Source of the DNA: Candidatus Moraniibacteriota bacterium
GTDB taxonomy: Bacteria > Patescibacteriota > Minisyncoccia > Moranbacterales > UBA1568
Assembly (NCBI GenBank): GCA_963743885.1
Contig: CAVURJ010000001.1
Span: 279,488 to 343,487 of the forward strand
Direction of reading: 5' to 3'
DNA length: 64,000 nucleotides
The translations under genes were made by a program, and so were the position numbers. The notes beneath the pieces are model-generated. The model saw only the letters and a list, made by a program, of their open reading frames with translations, ran no database searches and had not been told where the DNA came from. Of this stretch, positions 2,730 to 61,182 are shown piece by piece (within the stretch, counting starts at the first letter, position 1; each line of letters opens with the position of its first letter).

Positions 2730-3980
2730 ATGTTGTATCTATACTCTCATCGCCGATCAACCAAGCACCGCCGATTCCTGCTCGCGGCCGCTTTGACGGC
2801 GGTTATTTCTGTTGGCTCGTACGTATTCTTCCGCAATCTGCCGCCTGCATCGCAGGATGAGGGGAAAAGAGCCGAAGAGGCGATATCCGAAGAGCAGGTG
2901 CCGCTCATCGAGTGGGTCGACCCAGATCCGGATTTTGGCAAGGATATGCCACAGTATGAGGTGGATGAGTGGCCGACGATTCCGATCCCGCCGGCGCCGG
3001 ATATGGCCCGCATGAAGCGGCAGGGGTGCGTGGCGGACGGTTTCCTTTCGGGCTATGGCGGCGATATCGACAGCTCCATCGCGCTCATCAATCGGTCGAA
3101 GTGTTACTATCTTCACCGGGCGCTCGAGACATGGCTTAAGCCGCCGGATTTCAAGTTGGCGAGGAAGATCCAGTCCAAGGTCACGAAGCCGAATACACTC
3201 TACGGCATGTTCATTGCGGAAGCTATTAGTACGAATGCTGATTACCAGTATCCGGCCGAGGACCGCGATTTCGATTTTAGCGAGATGTGTCGGCCGGGGA
3301 GTAAGAATTATTGGGGCGAACATACCTGCAAGCCGTCGCTTGATCGCAAGGAGTACCGTAAGTACCTGCACTATATCACCGAGCAGGCGATGGACATGGG
3401 TGTTCAGAGTTTCCTCTTCGGCCAGGTATTCTATCAGGATACGACGGAGTTCGAGCGATCAATCATGCCGGAAGTCATCCGAGAGATGCGTGAGTATGCC
3501 GATTTTCGCGGCATGAAGATCGTGATTGGCGCGCAGACGAACGATATCGTGGACGAACGGTATCTCAGGCTTTTCGATTTTATCGAAGGCGGCATCGGCC
3601 TCGGGTCGGATGGAAGCGTGGAAAGCGGGGCGTGCTTCTCGCGCTGGTGGAGCAAGCCCGGCGATTGGTGTTGGGCGCTCCTCTGGCATGACCGGTATGC
3701 CAAGAAGGCGAACAATGTTTTCCTTCACCTCGATTGGAGCGGCAAGATCGGCGATGATATGGACGTCTTCACCAAGATGGACAAGGATGAACGCGCCGCT
3801 GCGCTCAAGAAACTGTATACCTCCTTCACTTCGCGTGATTTCGGTTTCCTCATGCCGATGCTCGCGACACTCCACAAGGATGATGTCGGCTGCCGCGGTC
3901 CCAAGAAGCGCTTCTATTCTGCCAGCCGCAAGTATACGTGCCAGGATGAAGATGCTATCAATGTTATTTTGGGGAAATAG
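2730..3980 (+). CDS. Hypothetical membrane-anchored protein (N-terminal TM helix, large C-terminal domain)
   Basis: Long ORF. TM segment FLLAAALTAVISVGSYVFF just after the start; TATAAT at 2713-2718 precedes ATG 2730. No recognisable family. Confidence 0.55.
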   Translation: MLYLYSHRRSTKHRRFLLAAALTAVISVGSYVFFRNLPPASQDEGKRAEEAISEEQVPLIEWVDPDPDFGKDMPQYEVDEWPTIPIPPAPDMARMKRQGCVADGFLSGYGGDIDSSIALINRSKCYYLHRALETWLKPPDFKLARKIQSKVTKPNTLYGMFIAEAISTNADYQYPAEDRDFDFSEMCRPGSKNYWGEHTCKPSLDRKEYRKYLHYITEQAMDMGVQSFLFGQVFYQDTTEFERSIMPEVIREMREYADFRGMKIVIGAQTNDIVDERYLRLFDFIEGGIGLGSDGSVESGACFSRWWSKPGDWCWALLWHDRYAKKANNVFLHLDWSGKIGDDMDVFTKMDKDERAAALKKLYTSFTSRDFGFLMPMLATLHKDDVGCRGPKKRFYSASRKYTCQDEDAINVILGK

Positions 3981-4342: not shown

Positions 4343-4560
4343 TAGAAATAAAATCCGAAATCCGAAATTCTAAACACGAAACAAATCCTAATCTTGAAAT
4401 CCAAAACGAAAAACAAGGGTTTGAAATTTCAGTTTTTTGATTTTGAATTTGTTTAGAAATTAGGAATTAGATATTAGAAATTTCAAAAGCGATTGTTTTC
4501 GATAGGATTGTTTGATATCGATAGTGCAGAAGAAAAGAAAAACGGATATAAAAAGCCAAA
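4343..4560. repeat. AT-rich low-complexity intergenic repeat tract (aaatccgaaat / gattttgaattt k-mers)
   Basis: Shares k-mers with tracts at 15186-15326, 43545-43684, 48595-48692 and 48880-48920. Confidence 0.5.
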
Positions 4561-7202: not shown

Positions 7203-7682
7203 TCAGCCGAAGGAGTTGAGGCATTGGCCGCAGGCGATGGGCACGTGCCCGCGCGGGATCTTGGGGCGTTCGCTTGAAGACTTTCCATTGCGCGCCTTGA
7301 TGGCGCCGGCGAGCATGCAGGTGCCGGTACGACAGTCGCAGATCTGTCCGCAGGTATTCATTGGCGCAGCTTCATCTGTGTTGCCGATTCCTTCATCTTC
7401 ATCGGGAAGGGCGTTGCCGGGATCTTCCTGGGCTTCCGTGTACATTTCCGCGGCAATACCGAGCGCCCAGAGCGGGTAGGCAGGGCCGCGCGGTGCGCCA
7501 TCGGCAAAGGCTTCGTGTCCATCGCGTTCGAGTGCTTCCTGAAGAGAGGGGTCTTCGGCTTGCTCAATACGCCCCGGGAAGTCTCCGAAGTAGCGGGCGC
7601 CGCCGTTTTGTTCAGGGAAAATGAGGTCTTTTGCTGTCGGAGTGATACAGAGTTCGCCTTTCACATATCTCAATTTCGGCAT
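7203..7682 (-). CDS. Hypothetical cysteine-rich protein
   Basis: ATG at 7682 with AGGAGC SD 7 nt upstream. C-terminal CGQICDCRTGTC...ACGQC cysteine cluster. No family recognised. Confidence 0.5.
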   Translation of the reverse strand: MPKLRYVKGELCITPTAKDLIFPEQNGGARYFGDFPGRIEQAEDPSLQEALERDGHEAFADGAPRGPAYPLWALGIAAEMYTEAQEDPGNALPDEDEGIGNTDEAAPMNTCGQICDCRTGTCMLAGAIKARNGKSSSERPKIPRGHVPIACGQCLNSFG

Positions 7683-7826
7683 TTTTCTTGCTCCTCTTGC
7701 TGTGTTGGAAAGGACTGCTTTGGTTGCGGGGACAGTGTCCAGGCAATGCACATACCATACTACATATGGAGGAAAAAGCAAGTGATGGAAACAAAAAAGA
7801 GGCCGAAGCCTCTTTTTTCGTATGCG

Positions 7827-9566
7827 CTATGCCTTTGAGGCAATCTCTTCTGAGAGGCGCTTGGTGATATCTTCGATCGATAGGGCGCCGACCTTGCCAG
7901 TCCGGCTTTCGAGGGTCGCGGTCCGGTCGGTGACTTCCTGGTCGCCGATGACGAGGGTGTAGGGGGTTTTCGAGACTTTGGCGTTCCGGATACGCTTGCC
8001 GAGGGACTCGTTGTCAGCATCGAGCGTGGCGCGGATGCCGGCAGCCTGGAGTGCTGCGAGGATCTCTTTCGCGAAAGCATGATGTCCTTCGCCGATTGGG
8101 AGGATGGTCGCCTGGACCGGAGAGAGCCAGAGCGGGAAAGCGCCGGCGTAGTGCTCGATGAGGATACCCATGAAGCGCTCGAGCGATCCGGAGATGGCAC
8201 GATGGATGACGACAGGTCGCTCCTTCTCGCCCTTCTCGTTGATGTAAGAGAGCTCGAAGCGTTCTGGTAGGTTGAAATCGCACTGGATGGTGGCGAGCTG
8301 CCATTCCCGTCCGATAGCGTCTTTGAACATGAAGTCGAGTTTCGGACCATAGAAAGCGGCTTCGCCTTCCACTCGGCGGTAATTCAGGCTGTTTTCCTTG
8401 GCAGCCTTCTCGAGAGCGCCTTCAGCAGCATCCCAGGCCTCATCGGTACCGAGGTATTTGCTCTTGTCTTCGCCGCGCACCGAGAGCGAGACCCAGTAGC
8501 CGTCCATCATGCCGAAGATTGTGTAGAACTCCTTGATGATAGAGACGATAGTCGAGACTTCTGATTCGATCTGGGAAACGCGGCAGAAGAGGTGGCCATC
8601 GTCCTGGGTGATGGAACGGACGCGAGTGAGGCCGCCCAATTGTCCGGACTTCTCATCACGGTAGACGGTGGCTGGCTCGAAGTAGCGGACCGGCATGTCG
8701 CGGTAGGAGAACTGGTTGTCCGCGAAGATCTGCATGTGGTGCGGGCAGTTCATCGGCTTCATGATGAACTTCTCTTCTTTACCGGAGACGCGGAAGAGCT
8801 CGTCACCGAACTTGGCAGCGTGGCCGGAGGCGATGTAGAGGTCTTCCTTGGCGATATGAGGTGTCCAGACGCGATCGTAGCCTTTGTCTTGATGCAGGTT
8901 CCAGAGGAGATCCTCAATCTGCTTTCGGATGATCATGCCTTTCGGCTGCATGAGGGGGAGTCCGGCTCCGACCAGGGGTGAAATCGTGAAGAGTCCGAGC
9001 TCGCGACCGAGCTTCTTATGGTCGCGCTTCTTCGCTTCTTCCTGCTGGAGAAGGTAGGCGGCGAGCTCGGCCTTGGTCGCGAAGGCGAGGCCATAGACAC
9101 GGGTGAGCATCGGCTGGTTCTCGTCGCCGCGGAAGTACGCGCCGGCGAGGTGGGTGAGCGTGAAGGCCTGCGGATCGATCTCAGAAGTATTCTCGACGTG
9201 GCGGCCTTCGCAGAGGTCGGCAAATTCGCCGGTCTCATAGAGGCTGACTGCCTCACCAGCCTTTTCGATATCGTCGATGATGGCGAGCTTGTAAGGATTG
9301 CCAGTGTAGCGCTCGCGAGCTTCGCTTATGGAAATCTCTTTCCTGACGAAATCGAGCTTCCGGTGGACGAGGGAACGCATAGCTTTCTCGAACTTCGGCA
9401 GATCCTCTGGTTTCGGAGCCATTCCTTCGGAGAAATCGATGTCGTAGTAGAAGCCATTTTCGGTGACTGGGCCGACGGAAAGCCGGGCCTTTGGATCGTG
9501 CTCGAGGGCGGCAATAGCGAGGAGGTGAGCTAGCGAATGGCGGACATGGTAGAGTTGTTCGTCCAT
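7827..9566 (-). CDS. thrS: Threonyl-tRNA synthetase
   Basis: HSLAHLL editing-domain motif, class II catalytic core and C-terminal anticodon-binding domain. Length 579 aa. Confidence 0.9.
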   Translation of the reverse strand: MDEQLYHVRHSLAHLLAIAALEHDPKARLSVGPVTENGFYYDIDFSEGMAPKPEDLPKFEKAMRSLVHRKLDFVRKEISISEARERYTGNPYKLAIIDDIEKAGEAVSLYETGEFADLCEGRHVENTSEIDPQAFTLTHLAGAYFRGDENQPMLTRVYGLAFATKAELAAYLLQQEEAKKRDHKKLGRELGLFTISPLVGAGLPLMQPKGMIIRKQIEDLLWNLHQDKGYDRVWTPHIAKEDLYIASGHAAKFGDELFRVSGKEEKFIMKPMNCPHHMQIFADNQFSYRDMPVRYFEPATVYRDEKSGQLGGLTRVRSITQDDGHLFCRVSQIESEVSTIVSIIKEFYTIFGMMDGYWVSLSVRGEDKSKYLGTDEAWDAAEGALEKAAKENSLNYRRVEGEAAFYGPKLDFMFKDAIGREWQLATIQCDFNLPERFELSYINEKGEKERPVVIHRAISGSLERFMGILIEHYAGAFPLWLSPVQATILPIGEGHHAFAKEILAALQAAGIRATLDADNESLGKRIRNAKVSKTPYTLVIGDQEVTDRTATLESRTGKVGALSIEDITKRLSEEIASKA

Positions 9567-15185: not shown

Positions 15186-15326
15186 ATTGAAGAAATTCAA
15201 AATTTAAAATCACAAGCTCCAAATAAATTCAAAAACTATAATTTTAAAAATAAGATGCCCTTAAGATACTCTGAGTTTTGATATTGCAATTTATTTGATA
15301 TTTGTAATTTTGAATTTGGTGCTTTT
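15186..15326. repeat. AT-rich intergenic repeat (shares ~130 bp of motifs with 43545-43684)
   Basis: cacaagctccaaataaattcaaaa ... ttttgaatttggtgctttt versus tacaagctccaaataaacttcaaa ... ttttgaatttggtgctttc. Confidence 0.55.
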
Positions 15327-39004: not shown

Positions 39005-39628
39005 ATGGCTGCTCAAAAAGTGGTCGTCGATGGGTCGACTGTCTCGGCTCGTCAGATGAAGGATTTCTGGCGTCAGGTCGACGACGGATCGATTACGGGC
39101 GAGATACTCCAAGCAGTTCTTGAACATCGTAACCCGTTCGAGAAAGTGATCAACAATGCGATGTTCACCGTCACCTCCGATGGTCGCACCGGCGAAGAGT
39201 TCATTCGTGATTTCAAGCGGAACGACTACCGCGTCGGTGACTATGCATCGGATGTGATGCGGAAGCCCGCCTTCGTCGCCACGAACGACAAGACGTACCG
39301 ACTTGGCCTCATCAAGGGAGAAGAATTCTCCGATGCCGAGCGGTCGACGAAGAATATCTGTGCTGAAGCAGCTCGTCGAGGTTGGCTCACGCCACCGGCG
39401 GAAGTCGCGCCGCTCCTTCGGGAGACGGTCTCCGATGAAGAGATCAAGCATCTCGGTCTGTGGTGGCTCGTCGTTATGCACGAACCGATTATCGATTCCG
39501 ATGGCGGTGCGCGCTTGCTCGGCCTCCACCGCCACGGTGGTGGCCAGTGGCTCGACACGCGCTACGGCAAGCCAGGCCGTCGGTGGGGTCGTGAGGATGG
39601 GTTCCTGTTCCTTCTCCCGCAAGATTAG
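39005..39628 (+). CDS. Hypothetical protein (C-terminal ~40 aa duplicated downstream)
   Basis: 207 aa ORF with AGGAGAG SD. No family recognised. Confidence 0.55.
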   Translation: MAAQKVVVDGSTVSARQMKDFWRQVDDGSITGEILQAVLEHRNPFEKVINNAMFTVTSDGRTGEEFIRDFKRNDYRVGDYASDVMRKPAFVATNDKTYRLGLIKGEEFSDAERSTKNICAEAARRGWLTPPAEVAPLLRETVSDEEIKHLGLWWLVVMHEPIIDSDGGARLLGLHRHGGGQWLDTRYGKPGRRWGREDGFLFLLPQD

Positions 39629-39921: not shown

Positions 39922-40098
39922 TTGGTGGGTGGCGAATCGAAGGGTGGTGGCAAAGATGGAAAGCCGTACGTTTCCGATGGCGATGCGAACTTGCTCAACC
40001 TCAACCGCAACGATGATGGCCAGTGGCTCGACACGAACTACGACAAGCCAGACAATCGGTGGAATCGTGAGAATGGGTTCCTGTTCCTTCTCCCGCAA
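39922..40098 (+). pseudogene. Partial duplicate of the 3' end of the gene at 39005
   Basis: DNA 40015-40098 is ~85% identical to 39540-39622 (…GQWLDT.Y.KP..RW.RE.GFLFLLPQ). It has only a TTG start and no N-terminal domain. Confidence 0.5.
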
Positions 40099-40104
40099 CT
40101 CTCT

Positions 40105-40305
40105 TCATTTCTCTCCCTTCCTTGCGCTGGGAGAGTTTTGTTTCGAGAGCTGCCCGTTCCAGCCGCCGAGCATCCGACCGATTTCGTCGATTTTCTCGGA
40201 GAGAGCGATGTATTTCTTGGTATCGACTGATTTCGTTTCCCACAGAACGAGGAGAAGGACCTTGAGTGTGTCGACTTTTCGTATCGCATGGCGGACATAG
40301 GGCAT
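40105..40305 (-). CDS. Four-helix-bundle (23S rRNA IVS-type) family protein, C-terminal half or diverged
   Basis: ATG 40305 with AGGAAAAG SD. ETKSVDTKKYIALSEKIDEIGRMLGGW resembles DLGYISEEEYEELNEKLEEILKMLNGL of TIGR02436 proteins. The upstream in-frame region has a diverged N-half (VLDRPGFPRLSQ); the start is uncertain and may extend to TTG 40458. Confidence 0.4.
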   Translation of the reverse strand: MPYVRHAIRKVDTLKVLLLVLWETKSVDTKKYIALSEKIDEIGRMLGGWNGQLSKQNSPSARKGEK

Positions 40306-40563
40306 CTTTTCCTGCGGCGAGAGGAAAGCGGTTATGCCAGGCCAGCCGGCCTGACTAAGCCGTGGGAAACCAGGTCGATCGAGTACCTCGCAAACGAGGA
40401 AAAGATCAGCGACATCCAGTACTGGGATTTCGTGGCTACTGCCGACGACGGGAAGCAACTGTTCTACTTCATTGAAATGGATACATCTACGGGCTGGTTC
40501 CAGACGTTCTCTGGGACCAGGATCAATCCCGAGCAGGTGGACTTCCTGACGATGAAGGGGTGA
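40288..40563 (+). CDS. Hypothetical protein; the upstream extension of the 4HB gene (40306-40458) would be antisense to it
   Basis: 91 aa ORF with normal amino-acid composition and no SD. It overlaps the minus-strand gene by 18 nt. Only one of the two extents is likely correct. Confidence 0.3.
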   Translation: MADIGHLFLRREESGYARPAGLTKPWETRSIEYLANEEKISDIQYWDFVATADDGKQLFYFIEMDTSTGWFQTFSGTRINPEQVDFLTMKG

Positions 40564-40762
40564 TGAACCATATCGCCCAACAAGCCGCAGCGCACTCTCG
40601 TGCTCTGCGGTTTTTTCTATCCTTTGTTCTATTGACAAAAAAACTGAAAAATGCTACAGTTTTTTGTTGCATTAAATGCAACAAGTTTGTTGTTAGGCTC
40701 AATCTTATGAGCCAGCCAGCCGTCGGCTTTGGCGGTAGAGTTACTTAAAAACGAGGGCAGTC

Positions 40763-43532: not shown

Positions 43533-43544
43533 ATTTAAATTCAA

Positions 43545-43684
43545 AACTCAAAATTACAAGCTCCAAATAAACTTCAAATTTCAAATACAAAACCTAGAAC
43601 GTTTTGAATGTTTGGATTTTGATATTGTGATTTATTTGGAAATTGGGATTTTGAATTTGGTGCTTTCGGAGAGTATTTCATGTG
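43545..43684. repeat. AT-rich intergenic repeat, paralogous to 15186-15326
   Basis: Shared blocks tacaagctccaaataaacttcaaa and gattttgaatttggtgcttt. Confidence 0.55.
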
Positions 43685-46061: not shown

Positions 46062-47540
46062 ATGGCTCAGAAGAAAACCGCCGCGAAGGCTGTGAAGAAG
46101 GCTCCAGCGAAGAAGAACAATCTGCCAGCTGGCGGAAAGAAGGATTCGACGAAGAAGACGGCCACCTCTGGTAAGCTGACAGCTCCGGCTGCCGCCCAGG
46201 AAGAGATGCTGCTCCAGGCGCTTCGCGGGATGCGCGATATCCTGCCGGATGAGCAGCCACATTGGGAGCGCGTGCGCCGGACGCTTACGCATGCCCAGCA
46301 GGAGTACGGCTTCCAGCGTATCGATCTGCCGACGGTGGAGTATGCGCACCTCTATCTGCGTACCATCGGCGAGGGTACTGATATTGTCGACAAGGAGATC
46401 TATCTCTTCAATACCCGTGGCGGCGACCGCGTGGCGCTCCGGCCTGAAATGACGGCTGGTCTCTGTCGCGCGTATATTGAGCACGGCATGAGCGTGCTTC
46501 CGAAGCCGATCAAGCTTTTCACGATGGGCCCGGTGTTCCGTTATGACCGTCCGCAGGAGGGGCGCTACCGTGAGCACTGGCAGGCCAATTTCGATATGTT
46601 CGGCGAGAGCGACCCGATCCTCGATGCGCAGGCGATCCAGCTTGCTTATCGCGTAGTGAGCCAGCTTGGCCTCAAGAATATCGAGTTCCAGGTCAATTCC
46701 ATTGGCACGCCGGAATCCCGCAAGGAGTATTCCAAGGCGCTGGTCCGCTATCTGGAATCCCAGAAGCACAAGCTCTGCCAGAACTGCCGTGAACGCCTGG
46801 TCACGAATCCGATGCGTGTGATCGACTGCAAGGAGGACAAGTGCATCCAGCTGACAGCTCAGGCACCGCAGTCTCTCGACTATCTCGACCAGGATTCCCG
46901 CAACCACTTTAAGCGCCTGCTTGAGTACCTCGATGAGCTCGAGCTGCCGTACACCATCAATACCCGGCTCGTGCGCGGCCTCGACTACTATACCAATACG
47001 GTCTTCGAGATTCGCTCGACTGACAAGGAGGGCCGCAACTACTCGCTCGGCGGCGGCGGACGCTATGATCGTCTCATAGAGCAGTTGGGCGGCGAGCCGA
47101 CCCCGGCTATCGGATTTGGTCTTGGTCTCGACCGCATCGTGCTCGAGATGAAGCGTACTCAGGTCAAGCCGTACGAGCAGCCGAAGGCCAAAGTCTTCCT
47201 CGCACAGCTTGGTGATATGGCCAAGAAGAAGAGTCTCCGATTGTTCGCTGATCTCGAGAAGAGCGGCATCATCATCGCTGAATCATTCGGCCGTGGCAGC
47301 CTCAAGTCGCAGCTCCGCGTGGCCAACCGGCTCGGCGTCGAAGTGACGATCATCATCGGCCAGAAGGAGGCGCTCGATGGTACAGCAATCATGAAGGACA
47401 TGGTCTCCGGTACGCAGGAAACGGTCATCCAAGAGAAGCTCGTTGATGCTGTGAAGAAGATCTTGAAGAGCAATCAGGCGCTCGGCCCGGTCGTACCGCT
47501 CCAGAAGCCGACCGATGAAGACGAAGCTGAAGGAGAGTAA
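46062..47540 (+). CDS. hisS: Histidyl-tRNA synthetase with a K/A/P-rich N-terminal extension
   Basis: ALRGMRDILP (HisRS motif 1 region), class II core, C-terminal anticodon-binding domain. ~40 aa basic extension AQKKTAAKAVKKAPAKK... precedes it. Confidence 0.85.
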   Translation: MAQKKTAAKAVKKAPAKKNNLPAGGKKDSTKKTATSGKLTAPAAAQEEMLLQALRGMRDILPDEQPHWERVRRTLTHAQQEYGFQRIDLPTVEYAHLYLRTIGEGTDIVDKEIYLFNTRGGDRVALRPEMTAGLCRAYIEHGMSVLPKPIKLFTMGPVFRYDRPQEGRYREHWQANFDMFGESDPILDAQAIQLAYRVVSQLGLKNIEFQVNSIGTPESRKEYSKALVRYLESQKHKLCQNCRERLVTNPMRVIDCKEDKCIQLTAQAPQSLDYLDQDSRNHFKRLLEYLDELELPYTINTRLVRGLDYYTNTVFEIRSTDKEGRNYSLGGGGRYDRLIEQLGGEPTPAIGFGLGLDRIVLEMKRTQVKPYEQPKAKVFLAQLGDMAKKKSLRLFADLEKSGIIIAESFGRGSLKSQLRVANRLGVEVTIIIGQKEALDGTAIMKDMVSGTQETVIQEKLVDAVKKILKSNQALGPVVPLQKPTDEDEAEGE

Positions 47541-47562
47541 TGGATATTCTGTAAGTTTTTCC

Positions 47563-47712
47563 GTTCCACGGTCTCCGTCGAACATCCCTGACTCGCTCTG
47601 CCGAACAGGGGGCTGTCCGCTCTGAGGCCCGAAACGGTCCCGAGCGTCACGCCCGACCGTTGCCGGCTCGCTCATCACGGATGTGGCCGCCGTCATCCGA
47701 AGGAAGGAAAAA
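47563..47712. repeat. Copy P of a ~150 bp intergenic repeat (second copy Q at 54307-54456)
   Basis: ttccacggtctccgtcgaacatccctgactcgctctgccgaacagggggctg... versus ttccacgatcttcgtcgaacatttctgactcgctctgtcgaacggggagctg... are ~80% identical over ~140 nt. Confidence 0.7.
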
Positions 47713-47755
47713 CATCACAGAAATCCATTATGAGGTAAGATGAAAGAAGGAGAGT

Positions 47756-48106
47756 ATGGCAGACACTGTTTTCGGAAAAATCATCAGGAAGGAGATTCCG
47801 GCAGATATCGTCTACGAGGATGACGAGATTCTGGCGTTCAAGGATATCCATCCGATCGCTCCAGTGCATATCCTCATCATTCCCAAGAAGCCGATCGAGA
47901 GCATCGCGCTTATGGAGGATGAGGATGCGCTGGTGGTAGGGAGGATGTTCCTGGTAGCCCGCAATATCGCCCAGGACTTGAACATTTCGGAAAAAGGGTA
48001 TAAGCTGCTCATCCGGGTCGGGAAGGGCGGCGGGCAGGAAGTGCCACATCTCCACCTGCATCTTCTGGGAGGAGCGAGGCTTACAGAGGACATTCACCCT
48101 GTGTAA
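47756..48106 (+). CDS. HIT family (histidine triad) protein
   Basis: HLHLHLL histidine triad. Hint-like length (116 aa). Confidence 0.9.
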   Translation: MADTVFGKIIRKEIPADIVYEDDEILAFKDIHPIAPVHILIIPKKPIESIALMEDEDALVVGRMFLVARNIAQDLNISEKGYKLLIRVGKGGGQEVPHLHLHLLGGARLTEDIHPV

Positions 48107-48520: not shown

Positions 48521-48692
48521 TATCGGCTGTTTTTCAGTGCGATTGCCAGGCCATCGAGATGTCTTTTGTGGGACATGGCGGTGGCCTGGTTGTGTTTTTG
48601 AAATCCAAAAATCAAAATCACAAATCCCAAACAAGTTCCAATGACCGAAATTCAAAATCCGAAACGTTTTGAGTTTTGATGGTTGGGATTTA

Positions 48693-48870
48693 TTACCAAG
48701 TGTAGTGAGTGAAACGAGAGTTTACTCTCGTTTCCGAACGGAGCGCAGGTAAAATCGGGTTGAATACCTCGCGGCTTGCCCGCCTAGCCGGCGAGGCTGG
48801 CCGCAGAATAAAACGAACATCAGTTCGTTTTTAGGGTCCAGGGCTTGCCCTGGGGTGAATACCCGTTATA
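48693..48870 (+). repeat. Copy Y of the ~170 bp structured repeat family (with a 21 nt internal insert)
   Basis: Aligns with 58263-58423 and with the reverse complement of 1382-1540. Hairpins with CUUG loops and compensatory stem changes. Confidence 0.75.
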
Positions 48871-48920
48871 ATTTATTTGTGAATTGTGATTTTGAATTTT
48901 GTATTTTTAAGGAAAAAGAT

Positions 48921-50338: not shown

Positions 50339-50524
50339 GGTAACCCTCTCAAATCTCACCGCCTGTTATGACTCAAAAAGAGCTTGTCCGAAAAAACCAT
50401 CTCCGTTCCGGCTGCAAAATCCGAAAAGCTTGTCGGGTTATCACTGATAGCCCTTTGCGTTTTTCGACTTTTTCGCTCGAAACGGAGATGGTTTTTTCTG
50501 GACATGAGATTTGAGAGAGTTACC
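50339..50524 (+). repeat. 186 bp element with ~20 bp terminal inverted repeats, directly upstream of ftsA (copy 1)
   Basis: Termini ggtaaccctctcaaatctca ... tgagatttgagagagttacc. Internal inverted repeat aaaaccatctccgtt / aacggagatggtttt. 85-90% identical to 51790-51975. Confidence 0.8.
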
Positions 50525-51789: not shown

Positions 51790-51975
51790 TAACTCTCTCA
51801 AAATCTCACCGCCAGTTACAAGTCGAAGAATGCTTGTCTGTAAAAATCACTCCCGTTCCGGCTGCAAAATCCGAAAAGCTTGTCGGGTTATTGCTAATAG
51901 CCCTTCGCACTTTTCGACTTTTTCGCTCGAAACGTGAATGATTTTTTCTAGACATGAGATTTTGAGAGAGTTACC
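51790..51975 (+). repeat. 186 bp element with terminal inverted repeats (copy 2), between ftsA and ftsZ
   Basis: gtaactctctcaaaatctca ... tgagattttgagagagttacc. Same orientation and length as copy 1. Confidence 0.8.
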
Positions 51976-52184
51976 GAGCGGATTTTTCCAAACACAGAAA
52001 CAGACACTTTTCCCTTATCAGAGCCTCGTTTCTTGACGAGAGGACTTTTTCGCTGCCATTGACATCGTATCTCCGCGTATGATACAGTGGACAGTCAAGA
52101 AGGCCTGGAGCTTTGTCAGAGCTTCGCGGTGGATGTAGAATAGCTGTACGGCATTTTTTTGTAACCAACCTTAAGGGGACACAT

Positions 52185-53581: not shown

Positions 53582-54028
53582 ATGCGCTGTCCGTTCTGCA
53601 ATTTTGAAGACACCAAAGTGATCGATTCGCGCGAGACCCAGGAGGGGCGCGCTATTCGCCGTCGCCGTGAGTGCGAGAAGTGCCAGGCACGTTTTAGCAC
53701 GTATGAGGAAGTGGAGATCTTCCGTCTGCAGATCGTGAAGAAGGATGGCAGCCGGGAGGAGTATGATCGGACTAAGATCGAAGACGGCCTGAAGCGAGCG
53801 TTTGTGAAGCGGCCGAATGCCGAAGAAAGGATTGAGAAGATCTTAGGCGAGATAGAGTACGCGCTCCACGAGAAGCATGTGAGTGAGATCCAGAGCCGCG
53901 AGATTGGTACGCTCGTTATGCGCAAGCTCAAGGAGGCTGATGAGGTCGCTTATATCCGCTTTGCGTCCGTCTACAAATCGTTCGGCAGTGCCAAGAGCTT
54001 CCTCAAGGCGCTGGAGACCTTGGAGTAG
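53582..54028 (+). CDS. nrdR: Transcriptional repressor NrdR
   Basis: MRCPFCN...CEKCQARF zinc ribbon plus ATP-cone. Confidence 0.9.
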   Translation: MRCPFCNFEDTKVIDSRETQEGRAIRRRRECEKCQARFSTYEEVEIFRLQIVKKDGSREEYDRTKIEDGLKRAFVKRPNAEERIEKILGEIEYALHEKHVSEIQSREIGTLVMRKLKEADEVAYIRFASVYKSFGSAKSFLKALETLE

Positions 54029-54032
54029 TCTT

Positions 54033-54251
54033 ATGAAAATCTCTGTCAGGGTCATTCCGAAAGCTTCGAAGACTTCAGTGGAAAGAATTTCTGAGACGGA
54101 GTATCGCGTGCGATTGACGAAGGCGCCGGCTGACGGCGAGGCCAATGAACAGCTCATAAAACTGCTCAGCAAGCATCTTGGTGTCGCGAAGAGTCTCGTC
54201 CGTATTGTTTCCGGCGCCACGAGCCGGAACAAGATTGTAGAGATTTTGTAG
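54033..54251 (+). CDS. DUF167 (YggU/UPF0235) family protein
   Basis: 72 aa. KISVRVIPKASKTSVERI...LIKLLSKHLGVAKSLVRIVSGATSRNKIVEI matches YggU. Confidence 0.65.
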   Translation: MKISVRVIPKASKTSVERISETEYRVRLTKAPADGEANEQLIKLLSKHLGVAKSLVRIVSGATSRNKIVEIL

Positions 54252-54306
54252 TTTTTAGCATTTACATTCGTTTGTTTTTTACACTCCTCCTCCTTTTCAT
54301 TTTTTC

Positions 54307-54456
54307 TTCCACGATCTTCGTCGAACATTTCTGACTCGCTCTGTCGAACGGGGAGCTGTTTGTTCTGAGGGCTGAAACAGCCCCGAACGCCACGCTCGAC
54401 CGTTACCGACTCGCTCATCAGAAATGTTACCGCCGAGAGACCGGAGGAAGAAAAAA
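54307..54456. repeat. Copy Q of the ~150 bp intergenic repeat
   Basis: See 47563-47712. Confidence 0.7.
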
Positions 54457-54544
54457 TGAAAAGGAGGAGATGTTTAGAACGAATAGACGAGCGTGAGTAT
54501 GGTATTCTGTGTAGGTCGGCGTTAAGTTTGCATGAGTCCGCATT

Positions 54545-56044
54545 ATGCGCGGCGATCAGATATTATTGTGGGGGATCATCAGTTTTATCGGGGGAGTCGG
54601 CCTTGGCTCCTTTTTTGCTGTCCGTTTGGAAATCGTTCTTGTAGTAGTGGCGCTCTGGATCGCGGCAGCGTCTGTGTTTCAGAAAAGGGATGTCCTCGTG
54701 TGTGGGGTGTTTCTTCTCTTATGTGCAGCTGGGGCACTGCAGGCGCATCATGCTGCCGATCGTTTCCGTCTCGAGTATATGCGCGGAGGGGAATATGTCG
54801 GCACGGTACGGATCGTCGCTGATCCGGAGGAGAGAGGCTTTTATCGCAGAGTCATCCTTCGGGCCAAGGATTGTTCAGGGTCCTTTTGTCCAGAGGAGGA
54901 TATCCTCTGGCAAGCGCCGCTCGCGTTTTCTGCTGAAGCCGGGACGCTCCTCGATCTCTCATGCGTGCTCGCTTTGCCGGAGAATTTTGATCCGGCATTC
55001 GATTATCGGATGTTCCTTGCGAAGGATGGCATCGGATATGTGTGTCAGAAAGCAGAGCGTGCGGAAGTGTTCGTGGGAAACGATATTGAAGGCTTTCTAC
55101 GCTCGTGGCTCTATCGTCCCAAACATGCGCTTGAGGACGCACTCAGCCGGAGCATTTCTGATCCGGAAGCGGCTCTCGGCAAGGGGCTTATCTTAGGCGG
55201 TGACCGGCATCTGCCGGAGCGGCTTCAGGATCTCTTCGCGCGCATCGGGCTCTCGCATATCGTCGCGGTGTCCGGCTATAATATCGCCATCATTGCCCAG
55301 GGCGTCCTCGTCCTTGGAATCGGGGCGGGACTGTGGCGTCGCCGGGCCGTGTGGGTATCGCTCATCGGCATCATCCTCTTCGTCCTCATGATCGGCGCTC
55401 CGTCGTCAGCTGTCCGGGCGGCGGTCATGGCGGGGATCGCATTTCTTGCAGCACAGTCGGGCCGGTTGTCGCGACCGGTCGTCACGCTCTTCTTCGCGGC
55501 GGCGATCATGCTTATGATCAACCCGCTGCTTCTCCGCTACGATATCGGCTTCCAGCTTTCGTTTCTCGCGACGCTTGCCATCATCATCGCTTCGTCATGG
55601 GAGGCGGAGTTTCTACCGCACGGATTCCCTGGGAAGTGGTTCGCCGAAACGATCTGGTTCAGCCTGATGGCGGAATTTTTCGTCCTGCCGGTCATCCTCT
55701 TCCAGTTCCATGCGTTCTCGCCGCTCATGCTCTTCTCGAATGTGCTCATCCTGCCGCTTGTGCCGTACGCGATGCTCTTCTCGTTCCTCTCTGCGCTTGC
55801 GTTCCTCATCGTGCCAGGAGCTCATCTCATCTTCGCGTGGATCGCCTATCCCATACTCACCGCTATCACGCGCATTCCGGAGATGCTCGCAACGTTCTCC
55901 TGGGCCAGTCTGCCGGTCCAGGATTTCGGCATTGCCGCATTCGCGCTTTGGTATCTCGTCCTTTTTTCTGGTATCGTAGGAATCGAACACTATGCCGGGA
56001 AAAAACGTCGTACCGAAGCGCTTTCTCTTCCTCGCCGTCGCTAG
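54545..56044 (+). CDS. comEC: ComEC/Rec2 DNA internalization channel protein, N-terminal (competence domain) part; frame ends at the A6 run
   Basis: Polytopic membrane protein. RIGLSHIVAVSGYNIAII competence-domain motif. The C-terminal 17 aa of this frame are Arg-rich, as expected for an out-of-frame read. Confidence 0.75.
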   Translation: MRGDQILLWGIISFIGGVGLGSFFAVRLEIVLVVVALWIAAASVFQKRDVLVCGVFLLLCAAGALQAHHAADRFRLEYMRGGEYVGTVRIVADPEERGFYRRVILRAKDCSGSFCPEEDILWQAPLAFSAEAGTLLDLSCVLALPENFDPAFDYRMFLAKDGIGYVCQKAERAEVFVGNDIEGFLRSWLYRPKHALEDALSRSISDPEAALGKGLILGGDRHLPERLQDLFARIGLSHIVAVSGYNIAIIAQGVLVLGIGAGLWRRRAVWVSLIGIILFVLMIGAPSSAVRAAVMAGIAFLAAQSGRLSRPVVTLFFAAAIMLMINPLLLRYDIGFQLSFLATLAIIIASSWEAEFLPHGFPGKWFAETIWFSLMAEFFVLPVILFQFHAFSPLMLFSNVLILPLVPYAMLFSFLSALAFLIVPGAHLIFAWIAYPILTAITRIPEMLATFSWASLPVQDFGIAAFALWYLVLFSGIVGIEHYAGKKRRTEALSLPRRR

Positions 56045-58210: not shown

Positions 58211-58262
58211 CCGCAACAGCGGCGACAAGAAAGGGGCTTTCCACAAGAGAGCTCCTTTTCAA

Positions 58263-58423
58263 TTACCAAGCGGAGTGAGTGAAACGAAAACTTGTTTTCG
58301 TTTCCGAACGGAGCGCTGGTAAAATCGGGTCAGATACCCCGCGTCTTGCCGCGGAACAGGACAATCCGACGAAAGGAGGATTGTACGGGGTGCGGGGCTT
58401 GCCCCGCGGTGAATACCCGTTAT
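58263..58423 (+). repeat. Copy Z of the ~170 bp structured repeat family, upstream of tRNA-Pro(GGG)
   Basis: ttaccaagcggagtgagtgaaacgaaaacttgttttcgtttccgaacggagcgctggtaaaatcgggtcagatacc...gggcttgccccgcggtgaatacccgttat. Confidence 0.75.
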
Positions 58424-58483
58424 TTTTTGAAAACCATGAGCATTGTCGAATGGCCGGAATTTTGCTACGGTTAGAGATGTTTT

Positions 58484-58554
58484 CGGGTTGTAGTATACTG
58501 GTAGTACGCGTCCATGGGGTGGATGTAGACCGGGTTCGATTCCCGGCAGCCCGA
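58484..58554 (+). tRNA. tRNA-Pro (anticodon GGG)
   Basis: Acceptor CGGGTTG/CAGCCCG, D-stem GTAT/GTAC, anticodon stem CGTCC/GGATG with loop ATGGGGT, T-arm CCGGG-TTCGATT-CCCGG. Confidence 0.75.
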
Positions 58555-60968: not shown

Positions 60969-61182
60969 GAGCGTGTTACGTTTCCGACAAGAAACTCTTT
61001 TTGAAGAAAAAGAAAAACTCACCGCTCTTGTTTCTATCGAAACATTTCCCTCCCTCTTCACGACCTGAGGAAATCTTTCGAGAAACAAGAGCGTCTCAGA
61101 CAGTTTCTTTTTCTCAAAAAGACATCTTGCCGGAAACAGTCTTGCCCACCGATTTGTGAGTATCCGATTTTTTACGAACTAA

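Follow-up and report, generated by a model that had tools for sequence, protein, structure and literature searches.

The 64,000-nt stretch of contig CAVURJ010000001.1 analysed here (hereafter the window; Candidatus Moraniibacteriota bacterium, assembly GCA_963743885.1) carries two copies of a structured intergenic repeat, P, between hisS and a HIT gene, and Q, between a DUF167 gene and comEC. [quoted passage not shown] The element entered spacers between adjacent co-directional genes that nearly abut in related genomes, and either strand of its DNA, or RNA made from either strand, folds into a rod-like hairpin of 190–230 nt. Compensatory changes in the pairs and constant loop nucleotides show that this hairpin is the feature that is maintained. 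So far the element is found only in a small subclade of Candidatus Moranbacteria, within the Patescibacteria (Candidate Phyla Radiation, CPR).

A repeat search of the window aligned P (47557-47692) with Q (54300-54435) at 80% identity without gaps, and blastn aligned 47556-47712 with 54300-54456 at 79.7% over 158 nt, which bears out the initial annotation, where a two-copy intergenic repeat of ~150 bp and ~80% identity had been described in these two spacers. Over a 156-nt core the copies differ at 37 positions, 28 of them transitions, and gapless identity is 76–80%. The flanking genes were confirmed with Pfam: hisS (46062-47540) and HIT (47756-48106) around P, NrdR/DUF167 (YggU, ending at 54251) and ComEC (54545-56044) around Q. 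Covariance models scored the P core at 189 bits and the Q core at 182 bits, and neither nhmmer nor two such models found a third copy in the window; a weak nhmmer match at 8552-8661 lies inside a thrS-like gene and was rejected as chance. Two conserved sub-patterns of 19 and 23 nt, allowing up to three mismatches, occur only at the P and Q sites (chance expectation 0.10 and 0.01, respectively).

Comparison with the corresponding loci of relatives (L004-L007 and L014-L017, the latter being closer and reached through a ComEC search) revealed how the repeat came to lie where it does. Homologues of hisS assign the window to Candidatus Moranbacteria/Moraniibacteriota, and the genes from S6 to the M50 peptidase follow a conserved order in it and in relatives. 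The hisS-HIT spacer measures 215 nt in the window but 11 nt in both L004 and L016, and 17 nt in both L005 and L007, while the DUF167-comEC spacer measures 293 nt in the window and a single nucleotide in L006, L014 and L015 (TAA-t-ATG or TGA-t-ATG). Given that the relatives' spacers are close to zero, P and Q are both insertions, of ~200 and ~290 nt.

Two further full-length cores were found by covariance model R1, both in DUF167-comEC spacers: one in L017 (7399-7554, plus strand, 160 bits) and one in L016 (9755-9910, minus strand, 165 bits). L016 and L004 come from one and the same organism (99.9% nucleotide identity in hisS), and the hisS-HIT site of L016 contains no insertion. Q aligns colinearly with the L017 copy, left flank and arms included (84% identity along 254 nt). 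In L016 the palindrome of ~207 nt is inverted as a whole relative to Q and L017 and its outer flanks are direct, which indicates the same insertion, flipped in one lineage; the two orientations are seen only between genomes (L016 against the window and L017). Core identities are 0.76 for P-Q, 0.83 for P-L016, 0.77 for P-L017, 0.79 for Q-L016, 0.81 for Q-L017 and 0.90 for L016-L017. Since P is nearer to the L016 copy than to its genome-mate Q, P is not simply a recent copy of Q. The distribution at DUF167-comEC is patchy: the nearest relative, L014 (ComEC 88% identical, 4-fold divergence 0.25–0.30), is empty and so is L015, while the more distant L016 and L017 are filled. Moreover, the DUF167 gene of the empty alleles has an outgroup-like ending (..CCA TGA t ATG), and that of all filled alleles reads ..TTG/TTA TAG. 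Together, the patchy distribution and the allele-specific DUF167 ends require a history of seamless loss or of recombinational spread of the filled allele. In L017 the core is flanked by a 57-nt inverted repeat (7363-7419 / 7800-7856). Two Logan contigs of read set ERR12035942 end or begin within the Q core, at ~54390-54411, which may reflect extra near-identical copies or heterogeneity in the population.

The conserved unit is an imperfect palindrome of ~157 bp, bounded in all four copies by a terminal inverted repeat of 11–12 bp (TTTTTYCNTTCC ... GGAAGRAAAAA). Each time it is enclosed by additional arms that form stems and are particular to the copy or to the locus. Around P the imperfect palindrome reaches 193 nt (47538-47730) and around Q 224 nt (54264-54487), so that the ~150 bp of the initial annotation underestimate the full element, a hairpin of 190–225 nt. 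The parts of both copies, and the open reading frames (ORFs) that run through them, are as follows.

47557-47712, plus strand: P core, 156 nt, common to all four known copies.
47556-47567 and 47702-47712, plus strand: terminal inverted repeat of the P core, TTTTTCCGTTCC and GGAAGGAAAAA.
47538-47556, plus strand: left outer stem arm of P, TAATGGATATTCTGTAAGT; it starts on the stop codon of hisS, forms pairs with 47713-47730 and has no homology to the Q arm.
47713-47730, plus strand: right outer stem arm of P, CATCACAGAAATCCATTA.
47541-47743 (approximate), no strand assigned: DNA absent from the relatives' empty hisS-HIT sites, within the 215-nt spacer.
47590-47598, plus strand: left-arm motif of P, GACTCGCTC, a conserved internal loop around a 2-bp GC helix, opposite 47665-47673.
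47665-47673, plus strand: right-arm motif of P, GGCTCGCTC.
54300-54455, plus strand: Q core, with terminal inverted repeat TTTTTTCTTCC / GGAAGAAAAAA.
54264-54299, plus strand: left outer stem arm of Q, ..ATTCGTTTGTTTTTTACACTCCTCCTCCTTTTCA, homologous to the L017 and L016 arms and not to the P arm.
54456-54487, plus strand: right outer stem arm of Q, TGAAAAGGAGGAGATGTTTAGAACGAAT.
54252-54544, no strand assigned: whole inserted spacer at Q, 293 nt, made up of a left flank of 12 nt, the hairpin and a right tail of 57 nt.
54495-54510, plus strand: 'R' motif GAGTATGGTATTCTGT, in the Q right tail.
54333-54341, plus strand: left-arm motif of Q, GACTCGCTC.
54408-54416, plus strand: right-arm motif of Q, GACTCGCTC.
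47283-47696, minus strand: spurious ORF through P, antisense to the hisS 3' end.
53843-54418, minus strand: spurious ORF through Q, antisense to DUF167 and NrdR.

The internal direct repeat gactcgctc pointed out in the initial annotation is thus present, as GACTCGCTC or GRCTCGCTC, in both copies, and so is the GC-rich central stem, which covaries. The outer arms (18–35 nt) are unrelated between P and Q (5/19 identical) and pair within each copy; compared with the AT-rich hairpin family described below and with the rest of the window, they gave no significant match. As pairing extends 18–35 nt beyond the core into these copy-specific arms, the true termini of the element are undefined. The R motif of the Q tail (GAGT-ATGG-TATTCTGT) resembles the left terminus of P (47535-47552, GAGTAATGGATATTCTGT) at 16/18 positions (shuffle probability ~5e-4), and it is also kept in the tails of L016 and L017. 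Its occurrence at the Q tail and at the P left terminus indicates that the family includes an additional module, placed differently with respect to the core at different loci; a permuted or tandem donor, or extension of the palindrome by template switching, are possible causes of this shift.

RNA folding gave minimum free energies of −78 to −107 kcal/mol for the four copies (z −3.1 to −9.8), with plus/minus strand values of −78/−94 kcal/mol for P and −98/−105 kcal/mol for Q. With DNA parameters the values were −42 kcal/mol for P and −62 kcal/mol for Q (z −4.5 and −11.6, respectively). From P and Q alone, 48 of the 53 pairs predicted for one copy are kept in the other, against 40 expected under random placement of substitutions (probability ~0.001), and there are six compensatory double changes against 1.7–2 expected (probability ~0.002–0.005). 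Structural alignment of the copies, a check proposed in the initial annotation, showed that compensatory changes preserve the hairpin across all four: in a consensus rod of 57 pairs, 96.5% of cells are paired and both sides have changed in 12 pairs (17 cells). None of 500 shuffles reached this level, and sliding the partners by 1–3 columns left at most three such pairs. The helix 26-35/119-128, for instance, occurs as ACAUCC/GGAUGU, ACAUUU/AAAUGU and ACAGAU/AUCUGU. One-sided G-U changes are scarce, with 3 cells against the 17 double-change cells, and they are not biased towards a strand (3 G-U on plus against 4 A-C on plus, which correspond to G-U on minus). The lack of strand bias and the intact inverted copy would be easier to reconcile with a constraint at the DNA level, or one independent of orientation, than with an RNA of fixed strand.

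Conservation among the four cores is highest centrally and lowest at the ends. Within the central part, invariant columns make up 21/27 of unpaired and 56/76 of paired positions. Unpaired columns vary no more than paired ones, so the loops, the facing CTCGCTC motifs among them, are constrained in sequence. Mismatches such as CTCGCTC facing CTCGCTC are common to P, Q, L016 and L017, which implies that their ancestor was already an imperfect hairpin, and an independent fold-back (snap-back) origin of the core palindromes is excluded by these shared internal mismatches. Between genomes the core has diverged by 0.10–0.21, compared with 0.33–0.64 at 4-fold sites. Other intergenic spacers of these genomes are likewise conserved (66–86% identity), and the slow rate of the core is therefore only moderate evidence of constraint.

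Neither copy shows a coding signal. The two minus-strand ORFs read ..PPVRQSESGMFDGDRG.. and ..LPVRQSESEMFDEDRG.. across the repeat, neither has a Pfam match, the differences between P and Q show no codon periodicity in any frame (15/10/12), and a six-frame peptide query aimed at mis-called ORFs over other copies found 0 proteins among 5.8 billion. The initial annotation had taken these ORFs to be spurious and their likeness to stem from the DNA repeat, and we agree with it, lacking as they do any domain, codon periodicity or protein homologue. Of the peptide that it gave for both, LPVRQSES(G/E)MFD(G/E)DRG, the part ..VRQSES(G/E)MFD(G/E)DRG is indeed common to the two ORFs, and in the P frame the first residue is P, not L. 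The spurious ORF over Q was also called as a gene in the ERR12035942 contigs. At gathering thresholds, Rfam recognised only four tRNAs in the window, and with E-values up to 10 it returned only noise over both copies. On neither strand did scans detect a promoter-like site within or next to the element, and they found no intrinsic terminator at it. On both strands a T-run lies 5' and an A-run 3' of the hairpin, an arrangement which never resembles an intrinsic terminator. A long hairpin at 2543-2628, directly after the tRNA at 2490-2561, matched the rod model weakly (20.7 bits, E=0.015).

Searches further afield returned no additional copies. The exact pattern GACTCGCTCTG-N(55-80)-CTCGCTCATCA, scanned against genome and metagenome contigs, gave chance matches only (L001-L003, in coding regions of Frankia, of a Clostridia metagenome-assembled genome and of an unrelated contig). 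This pattern was too strict by one mismatch and misses L016 and L017, which read GACTTGCTCTG; a relaxed pattern, scanned against viral contigs, produced four chance matches, with no support from nhmmer. Blastn searches of plasmids, of phages and of 5,426 complete E. coli genomes (the last in distant mode) gave no match.

The element shares features with several small palindromic elements. Like ERIC/IRU, an imperfect palindrome of ~127 bp, it is small and non-coding, lies in transcribed spacers between co-directional genes, forms a long hairpin, occurs in either orientation and is present or absent at orthologous sites of relatives. However, it has no sequence similarity to ERIC (no blastn match in the E. 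coli genomes), it is longer (a 157-bp core, 190–230 nt with arms), its host belongs to another phylum (CPR), and its extreme ends vary by locus and show no TA duplication, while ERIC-type elements are reported to have conserved terminal inverted repeats and a flanking TA motif (PMC3184786). ERIC sequences within mRNA can alter its decay (PMC3184786). REPINs, which are REP doublets served by RAYT Y1 transposases, resemble it in that the replicating unit is a hairpin-forming palindrome lacking a classical target duplication, and compensatory changes across the hairpin are common in them (PMC3116915), as they are here. REPIN clusters form by insertion beside or into one another, which recalls the DUF167-comEC spacers of L016 and L017, each of which stacks two hairpin elements. 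The architecture is nevertheless different, as REPINs have conserved short REP ends around a variable spacer and our element a conserved 157-nt centre with variable ends, and REPINs number tens to hundreds of copies, compared with four known here. A parallel to IS200/IS605-type elements has also been drawn (PMC3116915).

A MITE is defined by terminal inverted repeats of at least 10–15 bp and a target duplication of 2–10 bp (PMC11602168). With classical MITEs (Correia/NEMIS, Nezha, RUP) the element has in common its size, the lack of coding capacity, a terminal inverted repeat of the core, a location at gene 3' ends and co-transcription. The 157-bp core, or 193–224 bp with arms, falls within the usual range of ~50–800 bp. 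Filled and empty sites can be told apart in relatives, the same line of argument as for Nezha (PMC3184786): L004/L016, L005 and L007 have no insertion at hisS-HIT, and at DUF167-comEC it is missing from L006, L014 and L015 and present in the window, L016 and L017. In contrast to classical MITEs, a target duplication cannot be demonstrated at P or Q, the outer stems are copy-specific, and an insertion sequence with matching ends that could be its parent is not known. Elements associated with palindromes and derived from IS200/IS605 are similar in that they lack terminal inverted repeats at their extreme ends, make no target duplication and are recognised as hairpin DNA. In IS608, excision is seamless, and such a mechanism would explain the ancestral-looking empty sites of L014 and L015. 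These elements differ in having two separate small subterminal hairpins on one strand instead of one long rod; furthermore, no TnpA gene was seen, and no conserved target tetranucleotide can be defined from two loci.

By analogy with MITEs, REPINs and IS200/IS605-type elements, the element may spread, or be retained, in the form of a DNA hairpin that is recognised by a protein acting in trans from a gene elsewhere. The extra outer stems could arise at each site through extension or remodelling of the palindrome, and the element would be passively co-transcribed within the operon mRNA, where its layout, with a T-run before and an A-run after the hairpin, would avoid intrinsic termination in both orientations. 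Once in the mRNA, the hairpin may also serve as a processing or stability element.

Several observations weigh against an insertion element of this kind. No transposase, recombinase or reverse transcriptase was found among the scanned ORFs (most of those predicted in the window, including every large one), no RAYT/Y1 gene matched among these ORFs or in the relatives' loci, and mobiliser genes are absent from the annotations of those loci except for an RVT_1 gene in L017. The latter (L017:47-3101) is followed by a gene for a 704-aa VWA-domain protein, upstream of DAGK-ftsA-ftsZ, and has no counterpart in the window. There is no clear target-site duplication at P or Q. P is flanked by GAAGGAGAGTAATGG / GAAGGAGAGT-ATGG, a 14/15-nt direct repeat of which both halves look ancestral (the hisS end and the HIT start), and the best candidate at Q is GAGATT / GAGT. 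The extreme ends of P and Q are unlike each other, in contrast to those of classical MITEs. Only four copies at two loci are known from the 64-kb window and the relatives' loci, and the DUF167-comEC copy is old, being orthologous in three genomes, so that recent activity is not demonstrated. Lastly, a core that evolves 2–4 times more slowly than 4-fold synonymous sites could mean a function at the level of the host. Membership of the MITE class is not fully established, owing to the target duplication and the true termini.

An alternative possibility, which we regard as unlikely, is that the element is a structured RNA with a function for the host, either a cis-acting stem-loop in the hisS-HIT and nrdR-DUF167-comEC mRNAs, involved in processing, stability or uncoupling of translation, or a small RNA gene, in which case it would be selected by the host and its mobility would be only historical. 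The strong covariation, the conserved loop nucleotides, the slow core and the orthologous retention in three genomes all agree with such a function, as do the co-orientation of three of the four copies with the flanking genes, the more stable fold of the minus strand and the purine-rich internal loops on that strand. However, both loci are empty in the nearest and in all more distant relatives, the L016 copy is inverted and yet equally intact, and G-U pairs favour neither strand and are scarce as intermediates. Besides, the element has no promoter, terminator or Rfam match, and other spacers are about equally conserved. 6S RNA, a long rod with an internal bubble and two paralogues, was considered and rejected, there being no Rfam signal, and the element being an insertion that is inverted in L016. 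An intrinsic (Rho-independent) terminator or attenuator between the genes deserves practically no credence: the GC-rich stem-loop does lie just past a stop codon, but it is never followed by a U-tract on either strand, is ~10 times longer than a terminator stem, does not match anything in the terminator scan and is absent in relatives with the same operon.

Inversion could also be the function of the palindrome, its arms letting the core flip and thereby altering expression of the downstream gene (comEC at Q). We find such an inverton very improbable. The ~207-nt palindrome that is inverted in L016 between unchanged flanks and the 57-nt inverted repeat around the L017 core speak for it, and the contig breaks in the Q core would fit a heterogeneous population; yet those breaks lie off the arm boundaries, no invertase or recombinase was found among the scanned window ORFs or the relatives' loci, the element has no promoter-like site, and being nearly palindromic it would alter very little sequence by flipping. 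A single inversion between species requires no more than one rare event of recombination between the arms. That a stretch of spacer was simply duplicated locally, once, without mobility or function and with an incidental hairpin, is scarcely credible. Such a duplication would suit a pair of copies, the only ones in 64 kb, that lie 6.7 kb apart in one orientation and whose divergence (0.20–0.24) is no larger than the neutral divergence accumulated since the split from the nearest sampled relatives. The initial annotation had reserved this explanation for a repeat restricted to two sites with no conservation of structure; instead, there are further copies in two other genomes, one of them nearer to P than Q is, and pairing is kept both by compensatory changes and by outer stems unrelated between copies. 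In addition, the copies sit exactly between intact genes and the flanking genes are not duplicated. An insertion element that moves or persists as a hairpin thus remains the reading we favour.

Other families of hairpin repeats also occur in these genomes, at differing loci, while no long intergenic inverted repeats were found in 53 kb of the more distant relatives L005-L007. The '170-bp element' of the initial annotation, here D1, is a MITE-like family of ~185 bp with copies at 50339-50523 and 51791-51976, one in the 5' leader of ftsA and one just after its stop codon. It has conserved terminal inverted repeats, GTAACYCTCTCAAA(A)TCTCA, and an internal palindrome with 54-nt arms. Against the P/Q covariance models it reached 8.8 bits (E=2) in one search and 19.3 bits (E=0.031) in another, noise or a weak score, and with terminal inverted repeats of its own D1 is a distinct family, as had been proposed. 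A weak relative of D1 occurs at L016:5211-5303, and short-read contigs of ERR12035942, which come from the same organism, also end inside the D1b repeat (~51908), indicating that such elements fragment assemblies. An AT-rich hairpin family has four copies in the window (4351-4487, 15193-15325, 43537-43666 and 48601-48907) and relatives at L015:2891-2983 and 3429-3485. Its third copy fills the Pth-LytR spacer, which is 8 nt in L007, and the arms of its fourth lie 232 nt apart and enclose the D6/D12 unit described below. A palindromic family, H2, lies at 60990-61127, between an ECF-transporter gene and rpmB (L28), and a 76% identical copy is found at another locus of another genome, beside the Q-type element of L017 (7623-7760, within the palindrome 7608-7775). 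H3 (L016:9514-9696), a palindrome of ~180 nt, is stacked beside the inverted Q-type core in the same spacer. It scored 15.4 bits (E=0.014) on the P/Q model and has the short motifs CGTTACCGA and GACTC in common with it, so H3 may be a distant sister family of the P/Q element.

Two further features of the window deserve mention. The D6/D12 unit occurs at 48692-48874 and 58262-58428, and also at L005:5741-5811 and L006:8635-8668. D6 contains a covarying hairpin (AAACGAGAGT..ACTCTCGTTT against AAACGAAAAC..GTTTTCGTTT) and is 89% identical in the distant relative L005 even though synonymous sites are near saturation, with no Rfam match. D12, which follows it, is promoter-like (CTTGCCC-N16-TATAAT), and the tRNA at 58484 lies just downstream of the second copy. 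The unit could be an unannotated small RNA or leader. A pair of 130-nt repeats (39493-39622 and 39969-40098) bears the signature of a diversity-generating retroelement, with ORFs at 39005-39628 on the plus strand and 40105-40638 on the minus strand: at 18 of the 19 mismatches, 39969-40098, the template repeat, has A where 39493-39622, at the 3' end of an ORF, has G or C. The adjoining ORF has a weak bAvd-like match, and L007 lacks the 4.5-kb block that contains the pair. No reverse transcriptase for it was found in the window. A link between P/Q and this pair, 8 kb upstream, was considered and rejected, as the two have no sequence relation and the window yielded no reverse transcriptase.

We think it decidedly unlikely that the hairpin module, rather than being a decaying MITE, is under continuing purifying selection that acts on pairs and unpaired nucleotides alike and irrespective of orientation. 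If it were, this would point to a hairpin or cruciform recognised at the DNA level by a dedicated CPR protein. Such a protein could belong to a new transposition system that has neither terminal inverted repeats nor a target duplication and in which copies extend their own stems by template switching and can flip in place, or the hairpin could be a domesticated structural signal between essential genes.

CPR/Patescibacteria genomes are small and tightly packed, and the genes affected here lie 1–17 nt apart in relatives. This sub-lineage tolerates several families of 130–230 nt hairpins within conserved operons (hisS-HIT, ftsA-ftsZ and nrdR-comEC), which makes it a useful case for understanding how streamlined genomes come to be invaded by selfish or structural DNA. 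In practical terms, the elements cause spurious ORF calls and coincide with the ends of short-read contigs, and their presence, absence and orientation provide markers for strain tracking. If the constraint on the loops reflects a specific binding protein, the element would lead to an activity in mobilisation or nucleic-acid binding that has gone unrecognised in this uncultured phylum.

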